Assembly: GCA_036845805.1 (NCBI GenBank)
Contig: DAIUDD010000002.1
Span: 55,868-119,867, forward strand
Length of the DNA stretch: 64,000 nt
Source: Patescibacteria group bacterium
GTDB lineage: Bacteria > Patescibacteriota > Patescibacteriia > UBA2196
Direction: 5' to 3'
Part shown: piece after piece, positions 2,975 to 61,808 of the stretch
How positions within the stretch are numbered: the stretch's first letter is position 1
How the letters are laid out: each line of letters starts with the position of its first letter
The notes under the pieces: model-generated
The model's input: only the letters and a program-made list of their open reading frames with translations
What the model was told of the DNA's origin: nothing
Database searches by the model: none
Program-made: the position numbers and the translations under genes

Positions 2975-3505
2975 TTACACGCGGCGTCTTTTTTTAGGAC
3001 GTACACCGCCGTGGGGCACGGGTGTCATATCTTTAATTGCAGTAATTTTTATACCATTAGTATCAAAAGCGCGCACCGCTGCCTCGCGACCCATACCAAC
3101 ACCCTTAACAAACACATCGAGCTCTTTAATGCCTAATTGCTTAATCTTATCAGCTAATGATTTAACTATAACGCCAGCAGCATAAGGAGTGGCTTTTTTA
3201 GGGCCCTTAAAACCAGCGCGGCCAGCCGTGGCCCATAATAAAACAGAACCATTTAGATCGCTAATAGTAATAATAGTATTGTTGTAAGTAGCTTTAATAT
3301 GAGCCTGCCCACGACCGCCACGTAAAAACGGGGCAGCTTTCTTTTTTTTCTTACCCTTAACAACCACTGTCGATGAACTGGCAGAATTTTTTAATTTTGT
3401 TTTTTCCTCGTTCAGAGATTCTGTCTTTTCTTCAACAGCAACAACTTCAGCTGGGGCTACTGAATTTTCAGTCATCGAATTAATTGTTTTTTGTTCATCG
3501 TCCAT
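2975..3505 (-). CDS. rpsK: 30S ribosomal protein S11 with an N-terminal extension of about 45 aa
   Basis: C-terminal two thirds (GQAHIKATYNNTIITISDLNGSVLLWATAGRAGFKGPKKATPYAAG...PHGGVRPKKRRRV) is canonical S11. Confidence 0.9.
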   Translation of the reverse strand: MDDEQKTINSMTENSVAPAEVVAVEEKTESLNEEKTKLKNSASSSTVVVKGKKKKKAAPFLRGGRGQAHIKATYNNTIITISDLNGSVLLWATAGRAGFKGPKKATPYAAGVIVKSLADKIKQLGIKELDVFVKGVGMGREAAVRAFDTNGIKITAIKDMTPVPHGGVRPKKRRRV

Positions 3506-15694: not shown

Positions 15695-17152
15695 ATGAAT
15701 AATTTTTTCAAGATTTACAATACACTTGGCCGAGAAAAGCAAGAATTCAAGCCCCTGAAAAAGGGGCGGGTTTTGATGTATCATTGTGGACCGACGGTCT
15801 ATTGGACCCAACACATTGGCAATATGCGCGGCATGGTGATGGCGGATTTAATTGTCAGAAGTTTGGAATATTTGGGCTATCGGGTAAAATTGGCGCGCAA
15901 TTATACTGATGTCGGGCATTTAACTTCGGATAGTGATGAAGGTGAAGACAAAATAGAAAAAGGAGCGAAAAGGGAAAATTTAACGCCAAAACAAATCGCG
16001 GATAAATATATAAAAATTTTTGAAGCAGATATTAAAGAACTAAACACCCGACCGGCAGATTATAAACCACGAGCCACTGAAACAATTCCCGAAATTATTA
16101 AAACTGTGCAAACGCTTTTGGACAAAGGCTATGCCTATGAAACAGATTTGGCAGTTTATTTTGATGTTTCTAAAACAAAAAATTATACCAAGCTTTCTGG
16201 CCAAAAAATGGCAGAAAATATAAAAGAAGCCGGCAAGGCCGGAGTCAGCGACCCAGATAAAAAAAATCCAGCGGATTTTGCGCTTTGGTTTTTTCGCGCG
16301 GGCAAACATAAAAATGCACTGCAATATTGGAGCTCGCCATTTAAATCAAATTTGGTAAAAAATGGTGAAGGTTTTCCGGGTTGGCATATTGAGTGTTCAG
16401 TCATGGCCAAAAAATTCTTGGGTGAAACCATTGATATTCATATGGGCGGAGTGGAACATATTCCAGTGCATCACACTAATGAAATTGCCCAAAGTGAAGC
16501 GGCTAATGGGGTGGAGTTTGTCCGCTATTGGCTCCACAATGAACATTTGGTGGTGGATAATAAAAAGATGGCTAAATCAGAGGGCACGAGCTATGCTTTA
16601 AGCGAAATCAAAGAAAATGGTTTTGCCTCAATGGCTTTGCGTTATTTCTTTTTACAAGCGCATTATCGGAGCAAACAGAATTTTACTTGGGAGGCGTTGA
16701 AAGCAAGCCAGACGGCTTATAATAAATTAATTTCTTTTTTAACCGACGAGAATTCAAAAGAATCAAGAATTACAGATTACAAATTACCTGCCTCGCCGAC
16801 AGGTAGGCAGATTACGGATTACAAAAATAAATTTATACAATATCTAGCTGATGATTTTAATATTCCTGGCGCGCTTTCATTAATTTGGGAGATTATTAAA
16901 GACATTGCACTTCCCTACTCTGAAAAAAAGAAACTGATTTTGAATTTTGATAAAGTCATGGGTTTGAGACTGGATAAAATTAAAAAAGAAAAAATAGTTA
17001 CCCCAATTGAAGTGCAAAAATTAATAGCTGAAAGAGAAAAAGCTAGAAAAAATAAAAATTGGCAACAAGCTGATGAATTAAGAATTAAGATTTATGATTT
17101 AGGATTTATAGTGGAAGATGTTGGCGAAAAAAGTGTGATAAAAAAGAAATAA
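15695..17152 (+). CDS. cysS: Cysteinyl-tRNA synthetase
   Basis: HCGPTVY...HIGN (HIGH-type motif), zinc-binding Cys, KMAKSEG (KMSKS motif). Confidence 0.9.
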   Translation: MNNFFKIYNTLGREKQEFKPLKKGRVLMYHCGPTVYWTQHIGNMRGMVMADLIVRSLEYLGYRVKLARNYTDVGHLTSDSDEGEDKIEKGAKRENLTPKQIADKYIKIFEADIKELNTRPADYKPRATETIPEIIKTVQTLLDKGYAYETDLAVYFDVSKTKNYTKLSGQKMAENIKEAGKAGVSDPDKKNPADFALWFFRAGKHKNALQYWSSPFKSNLVKNGEGFPGWHIECSVMAKKFLGETIDIHMGGVEHIPVHHTNEIAQSEAANGVEFVRYWLHNEHLVVDNKKMAKSEGTSYALSEIKENGFASMALRYFFLQAHYRSKQNFTWEALKASQTAYNKLISFLTDENSKESRITDYKLPASPTGRQITDYKNKFIQYLADDFNIPGALSLIWEIIKDIALPYSEKKKLILNFDKVMGLRLDKIKKEKIVTPIEVQKLIAEREKARKNKNWQQADELRIKIYDLGFIVEDVGEKSVIKKK

Positions 17153-19657: not shown

Positions 19658-19733
19658 AAATTTTATTCACAGTCTTATTATAACATATTTTTAAAAAACT
19701 GTCAGAAAATGACAGTTTTTTAATTTTCCTTAA

Positions 19734-20858
19734 TTAAATAATTTCTTCTTTTAACTCTTCTAATATTTTTTTGGCCTTGCGCGACAAGCGACTCGGCGTT
19801 TTAACAAAAACTTCCACCAACATATCACCCCGCCGGCTCGGCCGATTTAATTCGGGCACGCCTTTATCTTTTAAGATAAATATTTTGCCGGATTCCGTAC
19901 TTTCCGGAATTTTTAAAATTACTGGCCCGTCAACCGTTTCCACCTCCACTTTATCGCCCAAACTGGCTTGAACAATATTTAGATTAATTTTAGTTAAAAT
20001 ATTTTGTCCTTGACGAATAAATTTCCTATCAGGTCTAATCTGAAAAGAAACATATAAATTACCCGCGCTCGTGCCTTTGGGACCAACATGACCCTGACCA
20101 GCTATTTTAATTTCTTGATTTTCATCAATCCCGGCCGGAATGGTAATTTTAATTTCTCTTTTATTTCTCACCCGGCCTTGGCCATGACATCTATTACAAA
20201 ATTTCTCTGGTTTTTTACCAGTGCCATCACAAGTCTGACAAATTACTTCAGTGGCAAAAACACCAAAAAAAGTTTGCTGAGTTTGCTGTTTTTTACCGCG
20301 GCCATGACATTCGGGACAAGTAATAATTTTACTGCCCGGTTCAGCGCCAGAGCCAGTGCATTTATCACACACATCTTGTTTATCTAAAACAATAATTTTT
20401 TCCGCCCCAAAAATCGCTTCTTTAAAATCAATGGCTAGTTGAATTTGAATGTCCTCGCCAACTTTTTGTTTGGCCCGACTACGGCTGCGGGCACCACCAA
20501 ATAAATCACCAAATAAATCGCCCAGATCAAATTCTTCGCCATTAAAAGAAAAATTGCCGGAGTTAAAACCGCCCTGGCCACTGGCTCTGGCAAAATCTTG
20601 CCAATTGAACCCGCCAAAACCTTGCCCACCACTAAAACCACTAGCATTATTAAAAGTCTGGCCAAACTGGTCATATTGCTTGCGCTTTTCTTCATTGCCC
20701 AAAACCTGATAAGCCTCGTTTATTTCTTTAAACTTGGCTTCATTGCCGCTTTTTTTATCTGGATGATACTCATGGGCTAACTTACGAAATGCTTTTTTGA
20801 TTTCATCTTGCGAGGCAGATTTGGACACACCTAATATTTGATAATAGTCTTTGGACAT
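19734..20858 (-). CDS. dnaJ: Chaperone DnaJ
   Basis: J-domain (DYYQILGV...HPDK), G/F-rich linker, four CxxCxGxG zinc-finger repeats; start set at MSKDYY. Confidence 0.9.
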   Translation of the reverse strand: MSKDYYQILGVSKSASQDEIKKAFRKLAHEYHPDKKSGNEAKFKEINEAYQVLGNEEKRKQYDQFGQTFNNASGFSGGQGFGGFNWQDFARASGQGGFNSGNFSFNGEEFDLGDLFGDLFGGARSRSRAKQKVGEDIQIQLAIDFKEAIFGAEKIIVLDKQDVCDKCTGSGAEPGSKIITCPECHGRGKKQQTQQTFFGVFATEVICQTCDGTGKKPEKFCNRCHGQGRVRNKREIKITIPAGIDENQEIKIAGQGHVGPKGTSAGNLYVSFQIRPDRKFIRQGQNILTKINLNIVQASLGDKVEVETVDGPVILKIPESTESGKIFILKDKGVPELNRPSRRGDMLVEVFVKTPSRLSRKAKKILEELKEEII

Positions 20859-20876
20859 AAAATAATAAATAATAAT

Positions 20877-21376
20877 TTCCAAGATACAATTTCCCCGCCC
20901 GCATCGCCTTGCAAAGCATGGCGGACAGGCAATTTCCAAATAAAATTCAAATTTCAAATTATAAATTATTTTTCTCTTTTTTAATAATAATTGATGATAA
21001 TATATTTTTTAATTCTATAGCTTCTTGTTTTAGATTCTGCATTCGAGGAGAAAATTCAGGATTAGCTTCTTCTATAATTTCTAACCAATGTAAGGTTTCT
21101 TTGCATTCTTTGCGAGCTATTTTCATGCGATGAATAAAATCTTTGTTACCTAAGGCGTCATTAGCTTCCCGATAATTAGCTCCTATAGAGCCAGCGGATC
21201 TAATTATTTGACTAATTAAAGGTCTGTTAATTTCATCTTTTGATAATTCCCTACACAACCTAACAGTTCTTTTAGCAAAATCAGTAGTTCTTTGTTCTAA
21301 ATTGTATCCGGAATAATCCATAAATTTTATTTTGGATATTGTTATTTGAAATTTATTTGGAAATTGTATCTTGGAA
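20877..21376. mobile_element. Cassette bounded by perfect 18-bp inverted repeats (ttccaagatacaatttcc / ggaaattgtatcttggaa) carrying a four-helix-bundle protein gene
   Basis: 18/18 inverted repeats at 20877-20894 and 21359-21376 verified by eye; right end followed by tandem ggaaattg units. Confidence 0.5.
20959..21321 (-). CDS. Four-helix-bundle protein (TIGR02436-type, the family found in 23S rRNA intervening sequences)
   Basis: SIGANYREANDA...KDFIHRMKIARKECKETLHWLEII is the signature of this family. Confidence 0.75.
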   Translation of the reverse strand: MDYSGYNLEQRTTDFAKRTVRLCRELSKDEINRPLISQIIRSAGSIGANYREANDALGNKDFIHRMKIARKECKETLHWLEIIEEANPEFSPRMQNLKQEAIELKNILSSIIIKKEKNNL

Positions 21377-21388
21377 ATTGGAAATTGT

Positions 21389-21676
21389 CTACTCACCCTT
21401 AAATCCTAACTCTTTTTCCGGTGCCATCGCTTCTTCTATTTTACCAAAATTATTTTCATATTTTTCTAAATTTTCTTTAAGCGCCGCAATCATCCTTTTC
21501 ATGTGCGCTGGGTTGGTAATAATTTTAGCGGCCACACGGCCAGATGGTGGTAAAACATTCATGTAGGTTAAAACAAATTCCTCTTTGCTATGAGAAACTT
21601 GCATAGCATTGGCATATTCGCCACCAGGAAAATTATCTTGGATTTTAATTTCTTGAGGTTGGTTTGGATTAGGCAT
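21389..21676 (-). CDS. DUF3467-family protein
   Basis: GEYANAMQVSHSKEEFVLTYMNV...AKIITNPAHMKRMIAALKENLEKYE closely matches the DUF3467 consensus as I remember it. Confidence 0.55.
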   Translation of the reverse strand: MPNPNQPQEIKIQDNFPGGEYANAMQVSHSKEEFVLTYMNVLPPSGRVAAKIITNPAHMKRMIAALKENLEKYENNFGKIEEAMAPEKELGFKGE

Positions 21677-24158: not shown

Positions 24159-24238
24159 ATTTTTTAATAAGATGTCATTCCAAGCGAAGCGAGTAATTCC
24201 AGCTTCTTTGGAATAAATTAATTAATTATTATAATTTT

Positions 24239-24294
24239 GTAACTCCGGTCTTTAGACCGGATTGGATTTATCCGGATCTAAAAATCAGAGTTAC
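24239..24294. repeat. Family-5 palindromic element (gtaactccggtctttagaccggatt...gagttac)
   Basis: Copies also at 30276-30301 and in-frame at 61583-61613. Confidence 0.55.
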
Positions 24295-24596: not shown

Positions 24597-24624
24597 AAAA
24601 AATTAAATTCTAAATTCGAAGCGC

Positions 24625-24662
24625 GAAATTCGAAATAAGATCATTAATGTATTTCGAATTTC
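24625..24662. promoter_or_regulatory. Operator-like perfect inverted repeat (gaaattcgaaata-N12-tatttcgaatttc) upstream of the zinc-ribbon gene
   Basis: 13-bp arms with a 12-bp spacer, 30-70 bp upstream of the 24596 start codon; an aaattcgaa direct repeat lies just before it. Confidence 0.35.
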
Positions 24663-24689
24663 TGATTTATAATTTCAAATTTTTATATT

Positions 24690-45611: not shown

Positions 45612-47012
45612 TCAGCGACTTTGAATATTTTTAACTTTATTCGATACCAACTCCCCTTCTAAATTCCAAATATTGGCTTTAGTAATCTTTACTCGAATAA
45701 AATTACCAATTAATTTGGAACTGATTGGTCTTGGATTATCTAAAATTTTTATTCTTTTAAAATTTCTGGTTTTACCAAAAGCCACGCCATTTTTTACCTG
45801 ATCAACTAAAACCCCCGTTATTAAGCCTAACATTTTTTGATTATTTTCTAAAGCTGTCTTTTTTAAAACCTCATTTAAAACATCTCTTCTTTTTTCTTTT
45901 TCTATGGCGGAAACATTGTCTTTTAATTTAAAGGCGGCGGTACCGGGACGCGGCGAATAGGTGGCCAAATAAGCCATATCAAATTTTATTTTTTCCATAG
46001 CTTTTTTGGTTTTTTTAAAATCGGCTTCTAACTCGCCAGGGAAGCCCACAATTATATCTGTGGAAATATTAATCTTTTTGTTGAGCTGACGAATTTTTTT
46101 AATTAAATCTTCATAATGCTCTAGATTATAATGACGATTCATGGCTTTAAGAATTTTGTTTGAACCAGTTTGCAGAGGCAAATGTAAATAAGGTACTAAA
46201 TGAAAACAAGTGCTAAAACATTTTATTAACTCCGCGGTCATATCTTTAGGATGAGAAGTAAGAAATGATAACCAATAATCACCTGGAATTTTATCAATCA
46301 TTTTTAATAGTTCAACAAAACCTATCTTTTTTATCATTTTTCTGGTACTAGTAATTATCTCTTGAATATTGCTATATGAATTTACATTTTGGCCAAGTAA
46401 AATTATTTCTTTACAACCTCGAACAATTAAATTGTTCACCTCTTCTAAAATTTCTTTAACTGGCCGAGAATATTCCTGACCCCGAGTATAAGGCACGGCA
46501 CAGTAGGAACAAAAGTTATTACAACCAGTCATAACCGGCACATAGGCGCTATAATGGGAAGAATATTGGGGTTTAATATTTAAATATTCATTATCATAAT
46601 TTGTTTTAATGCTTTTACCTGCCTGCGACGCCAGCAAACTGGCTCGCTTGGCAGACAGGTGTTTTAATGAATTAATTTTTTGTGGCCATTCATTTAACTT
46701 TTTAATAGCCAAGATTATTATCCCCTTTTCTGCAAATTTCTTTTTATCTGAGGATAAAATGCAGCCAGTTAAAATTATCTGCTGTTTTTTTTTATTTTTA
46801 TTTTGTTTTTCAATTTTATTAATGATTCCCCAAATCCGATCAATAGCATGCTGACGCACTGAGCATAGATTATAAATTAAAAAATCAGCTTGGCTTGATG
46901 TGGTTTGTTTAAAACCCGCTTGTTCCAAAACAGCCACAATCCGTTCGGAATCAGCATAATTCATCTGGCAGCCAAAAGTGGTTAAATTAAAAATGGGCGC
47001 CAATTTTTTCAT
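45612..47012 (-). CDS. miaB: MiaB-family radical SAM methylthiotransferase
   Basis: N-terminal MTTase domain (FGCQMN), radical SAM CNNFCSYCAVP, TRAM domain. Confidence 0.85.
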   Translation of the reverse strand: MKKLAPIFNLTTFGCQMNYADSERIVAVLEQAGFKQTTSSQADFLIYNLCSVRQHAIDRIWGIINKIEKQNKNKKKQQIILTGCILSSDKKKFAEKGIIILAIKKLNEWPQKINSLKHLSAKRASLLASQAGKSIKTNYDNEYLNIKPQYSSHYSAYVPVMTGCNNFCSYCAVPYTRGQEYSRPVKEILEEVNNLIVRGCKEIILLGQNVNSYSNIQEIITSTRKMIKKIGFVELLKMIDKIPGDYWLSFLTSHPKDMTAELIKCFSTCFHLVPYLHLPLQTGSNKILKAMNRHYNLEHYEDLIKKIRQLNKKINISTDIIVGFPGELEADFKKTKKAMEKIKFDMAYLATYSPRPGTAAFKLKDNVSAIEKEKRRDVLNEVLKKTALENNQKMLGLITGVLVDQVKNGVAFGKTRNFKRIKILDNPRPISSKLIGNFIRVKITKANIWNLEGELVSNKVKNIQSR

Positions 47013-60782: not shown

Positions 60783-61808
60783 TCACAAATCTTTACTCTT
60801 ACCTACTTTTTTTCTAATCCCTGCTATGCTATCAATGATAGTTAAAAATAAATTAGTGGGTTGCGCGAGCCAGAGAATAAAAAACTGCCAAAAGGGTTTA
60901 TGTTTTTTAAAATAATGGTATAACGACCGGTTAAAATTAATCTGCTTGCGCAAACTTGGCCAGTGTTTAAAACTTTGCTCTTTGTGATGAATAATTTGCC
61001 AGGCTGGATAAAAATAAATTTGATAACCCACGTCTTTAGCTCTTTTACAAAAATCAACTTCTTCAAAAATCGCCCAAAATTTTTCATCAAATAAGCCAAT
61101 TTTTTCAATAACTTCTTTTTTAATTAACATGGCCGCGCCCATCACCTGATCCACGGCCATATTTTTGTCATGATTAAAATCCAACATAAAATATTGGCGC
61201 GCGGCTTTAAATTTTTCCGGCCAGAAATTATAAAATTTTAATTGAATTAATAATTGGTCTGACAACTTGGGGAATTGGCGACAAGAGCGTTGAAGCGTGC
61301 CATCAGAATTTAATAATTGCGGGCCGAGAATACCAATATTCTTGTTTTTAATCATAAAATCAATGGCAGCTAAAATTTTATCACTAATAAATTCAGTATC
61401 GGGATTAAGTAGAAGAATGTAATTATCTTGTTGTCGGGACAGGTCGCGACCTGTCCCGACGAGTAAAACAGAATTTAGAGCTTGATTATTGGCTTTAGCA
61501 AAACCCACATTTTTTTGATTAATAATAATTTCTAAATTATCCGAACTAAAGTTCGGAGTTACATTAAAAACAGCACCATTATCTGTAACTCCGGTCTTTA
61601 GACCGGATTGTACGGCCAAAAATTCTTGCACTGCCCTAACTGTACCATCAGTTGAATTATTATCTACTAAATAAATTTTCCAATTCACTTCTGACACTGG
61701 ACGCTCTGACACTTTGACACCTTTTTTCATATATTCAAAAACGGACTTTAAACATTTTAAAGTCAATTCGCGCGTATTCCAGGAAACAATAATAATATTT
61801 AAAAACAT
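60783..61808 (-). CDS. Family 2 glycosyltransferase containing three in-frame repeat insertions from three different families
   Basis: GT-A motifs IIVSWNT, YLVDNNSTDGT, LLLNPDTEF; inserts: family-4 at 61689-61722 (VKVSERPVSEV), family-5 at 61583-61613, family-3 at 61433-61460 (VGTGRDLSR). Confidence 0.75.
   Translation of the reverse strand: MFLNIIIVSWNTRELTLKCLKSVFEYMKKGVKVSERPVSEVNWKIYLVDNNSTDGTVRAVQEFLAVQSGLKTGVTDNGAVFNVTPNFSSDNLEIIINQKNVGFAKANNQALNSVLLVGTGRDLSRQQDNYILLLNPDTEFISDKILAAIDFMIKNKNIGILGPQLLNSDGTLQRSCRQFPKLSDQLLIQLKFYNFWPEKFKAARQYFMLDFNHDKNMAVDQVMGAAMLIKKEVIEKIGLFDEKFWAIFEEVDFCKRAKDVGYQIYFYPAWQIIHHKEQSFKHWPSLRKQINFNRSLYHYFKKHKPFWQFFILWLAQPTNLFLTIIDSIAGIRKKVGKSKDL

Follow-up and report, generated by a model that had tools for sequence, protein, structure and literature searches.

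The origin, spread and purpose of the intervening sequences (IVSs) of 23S rRNA, and the function of the Avd-homologous S23p or four-helix-bundle (4HB) proteins encoded in some of them, have awaited an explanation since the early 1990s. In the IVS of Coxiella, inverted repeats at the ends make up a 28-bp stem with the S23p open reading frame (ORF) in the loop, tandem heptameric repeats (GACAGAT) of variable number lie upstream of this ORF, and the IVS is cut out by RNase III in vitro, its ends having been mapped by rapid amplification of cDNA ends; mobility of IVSs has hitherto only been hypothesised (PMC4990558). For rRNA genes of the Candidate Phyla Radiation (CPR), short insertions that lack an ORF have been reported at the classical IVS sites, as well as 23S_rRNA_IVP ORFs in a part of these genes (PMC11270868). 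Here we describe an element of the same architecture which lies in a protein-coding operon of a Patescibacteria group bacterium (contig DAIUDD010000002.1). The analysed stretch of 64,000 nt is called the window, and all coordinates are positions in it. The element is a unit of about 515 nt (20874-21388, minus strand) in which a 5' arm of heptamers and a complementary 3' arm enclose an apical 4HB ORF, and it occupies the spacer between a DUF3467 gene and dnaJ in an already expanded heat-shock operon. Its arms are homologous to a dispersed, ORF-less hairpin of CPR genomes and are not private to a cassette.

The inverted repeat that a preliminary description of this locus had reported was borne out by the analysis: the 18-mer TTCCAAGATACAATTTCC is found at 20877-20894 on the plus strand and its exact reverse complement at 21359-21376. 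The perfect repeat is longer than was noted, with 21 nt (AATTTCCAAGATACAATTTCC, 20874-20894, partner at 21359-21379), and a second repeat of 39 nt with 79% complementarity is nested within it (20930-20968 with 21328-21366). In 30 first-order Markov versions of the window, with arms at most 700 nt apart, the longest perfect inverted repeat was 13-16 nt as compared to the 21 nt observed. No fewer than 10 independent assemblies, from ENA, JGI and Logan, agree exactly in the sequence of the element, which shows that the repeat is not an assembly artefact; together with the simulations this makes the observation real and non-random.

On the minus strand, the 5' arm (21322-21388) is a heptamer array that runs from the stop codon of the DUF3467 gene to the ATG of the 4HB gene and reads CAATTTC CAATTTC CAAGATA CAATTTC CAAATAA ATTTCAA ATAACAA TATCCAA ... 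on the coding strand. The 5' copy of the outer perfect repeat (21359-21379, minus strand), which includes the right-hand 18-mer, is 100% complementary to the 3' copy (20874-20894, minus strand), which includes the left-hand 18-mer and is separated by 15 nt from the start codon of dnaJ. The tandem ggaaattg units described at the right end are real, but their period is 7 (GGAAATT GGAAATT G, 21373-21387) and they are part of the heptamer array of the 5' arm. The 4HB gene (20959-21321, minus strand, 120 amino acids plus stop) is indeed the sole ORF, as had been stated, but the unit also holds a GC-rich mini-palindrome of 35 nt (CCTGTCCGCC...GCGGGCGG, 20895-20929, minus strand), which interrupts the 3' arm between two heptamers. 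The inner part of the 3' arm (TTTGAAATTTGAATTTTATTTGGAAATTG, 20930-20958, minus strand) begins at the 4HB stop codon, pairs with 21328-21366 and is paired in the minimum-free-energy fold. In the predicted RNA fold of the element (-115 kcal/mol, z = -2.6, with none of 100 shuffles as stable) the outer and inner repeats make up one long helix that closes the ORF and from which the GC hairpin branches off. The ORF is closed by the stem in both the minimum-free-energy and the centroid fold, and a U-rich tract lies between the stem and the dnaJ ATG.

The identification of the gene product as a four-helix-bundle protein of the TIGR02436 type holds, with scores of 70.7 bits for PF05635 (cut-off 33.8, E = 1.4e-19) and 92 bits for TIGR02436 (cut-off 24). 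A (G)xxRxxxSxxxNxxE motif is conserved in the 4HB family (PMC3936711; also Lin et al. 2006); in the window protein the RxxxSxxxNxxE part is present as RSAGSIGANYRE and the leading G is missing. The solved structure nearest by sequence is PDB 2RLD (E = 3.8e-15), an entry with five chains. The exact protein was called in 15 contigs, and its close homologs, more than 760 in number, all come from CPR/Patescibacteria. A PADLOC search gave no defence-system match for the protein. Within the window the element stands by itself: no second copy of the 18-mer pair was found when up to 3 mismatches were allowed, phmmer detected no other 4HB gene, and a profile search detected no other member of the hairpin family. 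The motif GGAAATTG has 8 matches in the window against 6.6 expected, five of them within the element, and gave no further copy. Rfam scans at the gathering threshold and scans for tRNA and tmRNA found no match in the window, which is also devoid of rRNA.

The resemblance to ORF-bearing IVSs extends to several properties. The window ORF belongs to the same family (PF05635/TIGR02436) as the ORFs of the Coxiella burnetii helix-45 and the Leptospira IVSs. Similar to the Coxiella IVS, the ORF is located in the loop of a stem formed by complementary ends (28 bp in Coxiella, 21 bp plus about 29 bp in the window) and tandem heptamers precede its start codon. Co-orientation of the ORF with the host transcript and an overall size of about 430-520 nt are also shared with ORF-bearing IVSs. 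Unlike these, the window element resides in the spacer of a protein-coding heat-shock operon and not in an rRNA helix, and its arms are those of a repeat family with many copies in the genome. Whereas the Coxiella ORF was reported to be decaying and is probably untranslated, the window ORF has a dN/dS of 0.07, indicating strong purifying selection. Excision by RNase III has been demonstrated for the Coxiella IVS and would apply to the window element by analogy only. At the level of sequence, the window element has all the features of an ORF-bearing IVS; only its location differs.

A direct connection to rRNA is provided by an ORF-less copy in the 23S rRNA gene of L031 (6440-7475), where the tip of a hairpin in domain I bears it as an insertion of 142 nt (Rfam model positions of about 160-170); from our own count against the E. 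coli sequence we take this hairpin to be helix 10. This insertion resembles the short ORF-less IVSs of Salmonella, Campylobacter and alpha-proteobacteria and the insertions in CPR rRNA genes (PMC11270868), but, unlike these, most ORF-less copies of the present family are found in ordinary intergenic spacers. The same L031 gene has further insertions, one of 66 nt at model position of about 291 and one of more than 90 nt at about 583 with a small GC hairpin. PF05635 genes inside unrelated operons were noted earlier, one of them separating cmr3 from cmr2 in Pleurocapsa (PMC3936711). That case is similar in that a small 4HB gene is placed between two genes with linked functions, here DUF3467-dnaJ, atpA-atpG and pilin-ligA. 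It differs in that the association was interpreted as CRISPR-related and flanking inverted repeats were not reported (PMC3936711). A full-text search, with most subscription-journal papers beyond reach, yielded no literature on intergenic IVS-type hairpins or on inverted heptamer arrays around non-rRNA 4HB genes, and no description of the operon-internal, non-rRNA form or of the link between arms and repeat family was found in the searchable literature.

The dispersed family became apparent when the 21-nt core was searched in one genome per species. Of the 42 loci found, RA.bin79 accounts for at least 16, and in Kuenenbacteria AS27yjCOA_103 the core is present on at least 11 contigs; a genome may have up to about 20 copies. 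The core is invariant among genomes whose proteins are only 60-85% identical. The preliminary description had reckoned with an 18-mer that occurs only here as grounds against mobility; the occurrence of the core motif in many related genomes disposes of that objection. About 36 of the 42 loci have no adjacent 4HB gene. These ORF-less copies are hairpins of about 130-150 nt, in which a short loop joins an arm of CA-rich heptamers to a following arm of GT-rich ones, and they typically occupy the whole stop-to-start spacer between two genes. Their heptamers include CAAGATA, CAATTTC and CAAATAA, and the arms vary as heptamer arrays. In a profile built from 32 ORF-less copies, positions 3-73 correspond to the 5' arm of the window element, ending at the ATG (E = 2e-14), and positions 72-120 correspond to the 3' arm from the stop codon onward. 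The ORF splits the profile at its midpoint (72/73), and the position of the gene is thus precisely the apex of a hairpin which usually contains no gene. The earlier view of the repeats as terminal inverted repeats of a single-copy cassette is therefore to be abandoned, since the arms are the halves of a dispersed and mostly ORF-less hairpin. A single contig of RA.bin79 carries two copies that agree at 99% over 127 nt; their ends are sharp, and their flanks are unrelated. Copies so similar in unrelated places point to duplication rather than convergent evolution.

The arms also accompany homologous 4HB genes elsewhere. The homolog P0005 (86% identical) is encoded at the same DUF3467-dnaJ site in another species, the homolog P0004 (87%) between a pilin gene and ligA, and the homolog P0012 (78%) between two large genes. 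In these three, the closest that were compared, the upstream flank contains CAAGATACAATTTCCAAATAA and the downstream flank its reverse complement. More distant genes are located between atpA and atpG (P0088) and between genes for an NYN-domain and a LamG-domain protein (P0069), and their arms consist of related CAA-type heptamers. Complementarity of the flanks was significant as compared to shuffled flanks at 13 of the 14 testable 4HB loci (z = 4.7-16); a null result for L022 is meaningless as its start codon was mis-set, and its flanks visibly bear arms. Distant 4HB subfamilies use other heptamer vocabularies, such as GTAACTC/GTAATCC, GTAATGT, TAGCTTA and AATGAAA. The proposed association of the inverted repeats with the 4HB gene thus extends to other genomes and gene contexts. 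In all of the approximately 13 contexts examined the 4HB gene is co-oriented with both neighbors, as expected if these genes depend on read-through transcription in the way of rRNA IVS ORFs.

Comparison of the DUF3467-dnaJ spacer in related genomes, which the preliminary description had suggested along with a search for empty sites, was carried out with 80 metagenome relatives found via DUF3467. Downstream sequence sufficed for a judgement at 75 loci, and at 71 of these the two genes are adjacent. Empty sites exist: the spacer is only 0-22 nt in about 30 relatives. In about 30-35 others it measures approximately 65-230 nt and forms one long hairpin, which may belong to any of many unrelated sequence families, the TTCCAA type among them, and in six it is about 440-540 nt long and contains a PF05635-type ORF. 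Four of these six have 4HB proteins of different subfamilies, each with its own heptamer arms (three Pfam-confirmed, that of L134 by phmmer match only). The spacer was occupied independently by different combinations of 4HB gene and arms. The syntenic close relative RA.bin79 (L052) has an ORF-less hairpin of the TTCCAA type at exactly the same spacer, L064, which is the nearest relative with 86% DnaJ identity, has a hairpin of 134 nt that is unrelated, and L063 (70% DnaJ identity) has an empty spacer of 5 nt. The spacer states are patchy on the DnaJ tree, and turnover at the site is rapid. A different cargo may be present at the same hotspot in L090, where a 700-nt spacer (DUF3467 stop at 2791, dnaJ start at 3492) with a repeat-like 5' end contains an ORF of 149 amino acids without a Pfam match.

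The window's own copy is of considerable age. Between the window and L015, another species with the same element, the 4HB gene has a dN/dS of 0.067 and a dS of 1.57, as compared to 0.049 and 2.07 for dnaK and 0.117 and 1.82 for dnaJ. Since the synonymous divergence of the 4HB gene is similar to that of the flanking genes, the element has been inherited vertically from the ancestor shared with L015. It is old at this site and not a fresh insertion, and its ORF is strongly constrained and not decaying.

We consider it probable that the unit is a copy of an IVS-type palindromic element with an apical 4HB ORF, one of a dispersed and mostly ORF-less family, that has long resided in an operon spacer and is transcribed by read-through and processed by RNase III. 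In such a scheme, read-through from the heat-shock operon would transcribe the element, and the RNA arms would pair into a nearly perfect helix of about 50 bp, with 21 perfect base pairs followed by about 29 imperfect ones and the GC hairpin branching off. RNase III would cut this helix, thereby releasing the 4HB message or stem-loop and separating the dnaK-to-DUF3467 transcript from the dnaJ transcript, in the way in which the enzyme excises the IVSs of Coxiella, Salmonella and Leptospira from the precursor of 23S rRNA. Helices of this kind are standard substrates of RNase III, a stem of more than 20 bp is compatible with cutting by this enzyme, and by analogy processing of the approximately 50-bp stem would be the most economical functional consequence. 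The hairpin family would have spread and turned over by a route unlike that of transposases; candidates are an exchange among hairpins, by recombination or gene conversion, and a process assisted by the 4HB protein. Parallels for the ORF-less members exist in the REP/BIME (repetitive extragenic palindromic and bacterial interspersed mosaic elements) and ERIC (enterobacterial repetitive intergenic consensus) sequences of enterobacteria and in the Correia elements of Neisseria, which are imperfect palindromes of about 100-150 nt with many copies per genome in transcribed operon spacers; Correia elements are substrates of RNase III, and REP elements stabilise upstream mRNA. The hairpins described here share with these the size of about 100-150 nt, the multi-copy occurrence in operon spacers and the ability to form long RNA stems. 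They differ in being made of heptamer arrays, in occurring also in rRNA helix tips and in that some copies bear a conserved protein gene at the apex; unlike Correia elements, which show a TA duplication, no target-site duplication was detected for the hairpin family.

Several results weigh against the processing scheme and against mobility. The 5' arm overlaps with a match to a sigma-70-like promoter, TAGACA-17-TACAAT (21391-21363), and a 4HB transcript started there would be without the outer stem; the counts in this promoter scan are overall not above those of shuffles. A motif scan of the window did not find an rnc gene. Among the spacer hairpins of 30 relatives, the sense strand was the more stable in 18 cases and the antisense strand in 11 (p = 0.49), and the window's own stems are uninformative in this respect (-61.1 as compared to -59.6 kcal/mol). 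There is thus no sense-strand bias and no G-U signature of selection at the RNA level, the palindromes being symmetric at the DNA level. Hairpin spacers show no preference for gene orientation either, with a ratio of co-directional to divergent to convergent spacers of 32:5:2 as compared to 201:28:29 for all spacers. A selfish or neutral repeat would account for this distribution no less well than a processing signal, and the hairpins do not look tied to promoters or to the 3' ends of genes. The case for mobility is purely distributional: no target-site duplication is visible at the ends of the 99%-identical pair (L035) or at the site described here as compared to empty sites, with AT-rich flanks limiting the power of this comparison; no transposase is present within 6 kb on either side according to the gene and Pfam table; the at least 10 identical assemblies give no presence/absence polymorphism within the species; and the 21-mer core was not found among the phage sequences of IMG/VR. 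In favor of mobility speak the multi-copy dispersal, the 99% pair, the presence, absence or replacement of elements at orthologous sites and the occurrence in both rRNA and spacers, from which we infer that the family has moved.

Other explanations were weighed against the same data. The preliminary description saw a mobile cassette, and a classical DNA transposon or an element resembling a miniature inverted-repeat transposable element (MITE) would have terminal inverted repeats recognised by a transposase acting in trans, a 4HB gene as passenger and a recent insertion. The repeats are indeed perfect at the ends, copies with sharp boundaries are dispersed in related genomes, empty sites occur in relatives, and ORF-less copies far outnumber ORF-bearing ones, as MITEs outnumber autonomous elements. 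Still, complementarity is not confined to the termini but extends over the full length of the arms as far as the start codon and the stop codon, and the arms are variable heptamer arrays instead of a fixed terminal repeat. Neither a target-site duplication (at the best-defined boundaries or here as compared to empty sites) nor a transposase within 6 kb on either side was found, the insertion has co-diverged with its flanks since ancient times, and the same family is found at an rRNA helix tip in the manner of an IVS. Such a transposon is therefore rather unlikely. Of the cassette proposal, the coupling of arms to the gene, the other copies and the empty sites stand; neither a target-site duplication nor, within 6 kb on either side, a transposase was seen, the insertion is not recent, and the spacer of L052 holds arms without an ORF.

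Also unlikely is a host regulatory hairpin, that is an attenuator, terminator or REP-like stabiliser that sets the ratio of dnaK to dnaJ expression, with heptamers that bind a host factor and an incidental 4HB gene. Such a role would agree with the long hairpins that more than half of the relatives have in exactly this spacer and that stem from many unrelated families, with the folding of all spacers of the operon into hairpins and with the U-rich tract between stem and dnaJ; moreover, the invariance of the 21-nt core in spite of 60-85% protein identity suggests sequence-specific recognition. It agrees less well with the approximately 30 relatives that manage with a spacer of 0-22 nt, with the lack of preference for gene 3' ends or co-directional spacers and of a sense-strand stability bias, or with the presence of the identical family within a 23S rRNA gene. 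Near-identical copies at unrelated loci indicate duplication, and the stem does not have the form of a short GC-rich stem plus T-run; the promoter and terminator scan of the window, with counts not above shuffles, found no terminator-like site at the element. A remnant of a diversity-generating retroelement (DGR), with the 4HB protein as Avd-type accessory and the repeats as relics of template and variable repeats, is very improbable. PF05635 is homologous to the Avd protein of DGRs (PMC10053308), with a homologous four-helix-bundle fold, and two divergent 4HB proteins at the site give weak bAvd-like Pfam matches below the family cut-off. The window protein, however, matches only the 23S_rRNA_IVP and TIGR02436 models and not bAvd, no reverse transcriptase or other DGR gene is listed within 6 kb on either side in the gene and Pfam table, and the repeats are inverted heptamer arrays, not a direct template/variable pair with A-to-N differences. 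As to a chance palindrome or assembly artefact, the region is AT-rich and of low complexity and two Logan contigs end within the 5' arm, but the 21 nt exceed the simulated maximum of 16 nt, the independent assemblies agree, and the arms are conserved in other species and gene contexts; this explanation was already refuted by these data and its probability is negligible.

A more far-reaching proposal, which we regard as doubtful, is that IVS-type hairpins form an autonomous and non-autonomous pair of a hitherto unrecognised kind of mobile element that lacks a conventional transposase, in which the 4HB pentamer recognises the heptamers of its own arms and promotes copying of the palindrome. Hairpin tips or spacers may then receive copies of the palindrome, be it with the ORF or without it, at the level of DNA or RNA. 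The heptamer vocabulary does co-vary with the 4HB subfamily. If true, this proposal would account for the origin of 23S rRNA IVSs, for the apical, co-transcribed ORF and the surplus of ORF-less copies, and for the 4HB genes in unrelated operons (cas, atp, dnaK). Irrespective of the route of spread, the full IVS architecture of inverted heptamer arrays with an apical 4HB ORF exists outside rRNA in ordinary operons, and its arms are those of an abundant ORF-less CPR palindrome family that also occupies an rRNA helix tip. The many copies, the ORF-plus and ORF-minus states and the matched empty sites offer a comparative system for hypotheses on mobility and on recognition of heptamers by 4HB proteins. 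An appreciable part of the spacers of very small genomes is taken up by the hairpins, which would form long double-stranded RNA in essential operons.

The mini-palindrome of the 3' arm belongs to a family of its own, with members of about 20-80 nt that start with CCTG(C/T)CCGCC and end with GGCGGGC(A/G)GG. The window contains two (20895-20929 and 46618-46659), and others are found in L029, L034, L035, L036, L038, L043, L045, L049, L052 and L061. The copy at 20895-20929 folds alone (-16.3 kcal/mol). It is missing from the orthologous element in L015, the 5' arm of which carries a different palindrome of 27 nt. In L045 a mini-palindrome is located at the same junction of a TTCCAA-type 3' arm as in the window, in L043 about 4 nt away. 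In copy A of L035 it is placed one heptamer further in; as this insert is missing from both the orthologue (L062) and the 99% paralogue, the mini-palindromes appear to be independently mobile. Small palindromes thus evidently insert into the arms secondarily. A similar structure is found at approximately 16783-16827 in cysS (15695-17152, plus strand), where the in-frame GC-rich palindrome TTACCTGCCTCGCCGACAGGTAGGCAG (about 16790-16816) lies between the direct repeats ATTACAGATTACAAA and ATTACGGATTACAAA and the protein reads ...ITDYK-LPASPTGRQ-ITDYK...; this looks like an insertion of a mini-palindrome that is tolerated within a coding sequence.

Arms of the TTCCAA type may also be nested or present in several copies. 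The 229-nt DUF3467-dnaJ spacer of L070 contains a hairpin within a hairpin, and in L019 (4860-5000) the arm motif is present in three tandem copies upstream of the 4HB gene, which suggests that arms grow by duplication of heptamer blocks or by insertion at the apex. The Logan contigs L009 and L010 begin inside the CAATTTC CAATTTC array of the 5' arm, with starts at most 2 nt apart. Variation in heptamer copy number, as reported for Coxiella strains, or low coverage could explain these starts equally well. A 21-nt repeat cannot branch an assembly graph with k = 31.

The operon in which the element resides is transcribed from the minus strand, as are all local genes, in the order dnaK, DUF4405, DUF3467, 4HB and dnaJ. 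The unit had been placed between dnaK and dnaJ; its actual neighbors are the DUF3467 gene and dnaJ, and dnaK (24158-22242) lies two genes further upstream of this spacer. The intermediate genes encode a DUF4405 membrane protein (21971-21687) and the DUF3467 protein of 95 amino acids (21389-21676, Pfam PF11950, E = 8.6e-18), the stop codon of which abuts the 5' arm. The dnaJ gene (19734-20858) encodes 374 amino acids with the Pfam domains DnaJ, DnaJ_C and DnaJ_CXXCXGXG; its true ATG was placed at 20858-20856 from the sequence, consistent with a JGI gene call of 374 amino acids. Further upstream follow hrcA, grpE, hsp20 and an ORF of 101 amino acids. The notion of an interrupted classical hrcA-grpE-dnaK-dnaJ operon does not apply, because the operon of this lineage also contains hsp20, the 101-amino-acid ORF, DUF4405 and DUF3467.

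Every spacer of the heat-shock operon folds into a hairpin. The one between hsp20 and the 101-amino-acid ORF (24597-24689) has arms with the heptamer-like motif AAATTCG, the one upstream of dnaK (24159-24290) forms a pair of hairpins (z = -6.1), and a terminator-like stem is found 3' of dnaJ (19658-19733). Just upstream of dnaK, the 18-nt palindrome TCCGGTCTTTAGACCGGA (24244-24261) is not the CIRCE element (controlling inverted repeat of chaperone expression); it may represent an operator-like site or a further palindromic repeat. The palindrome occurs again at 61540-61557 and 61590-61607, and near 61.6 kb it forms, together with the variant TCCGAACTAAAGTTCGGA, a larger inverted repeat within an ORF of 341 amino acids (60783-61808).

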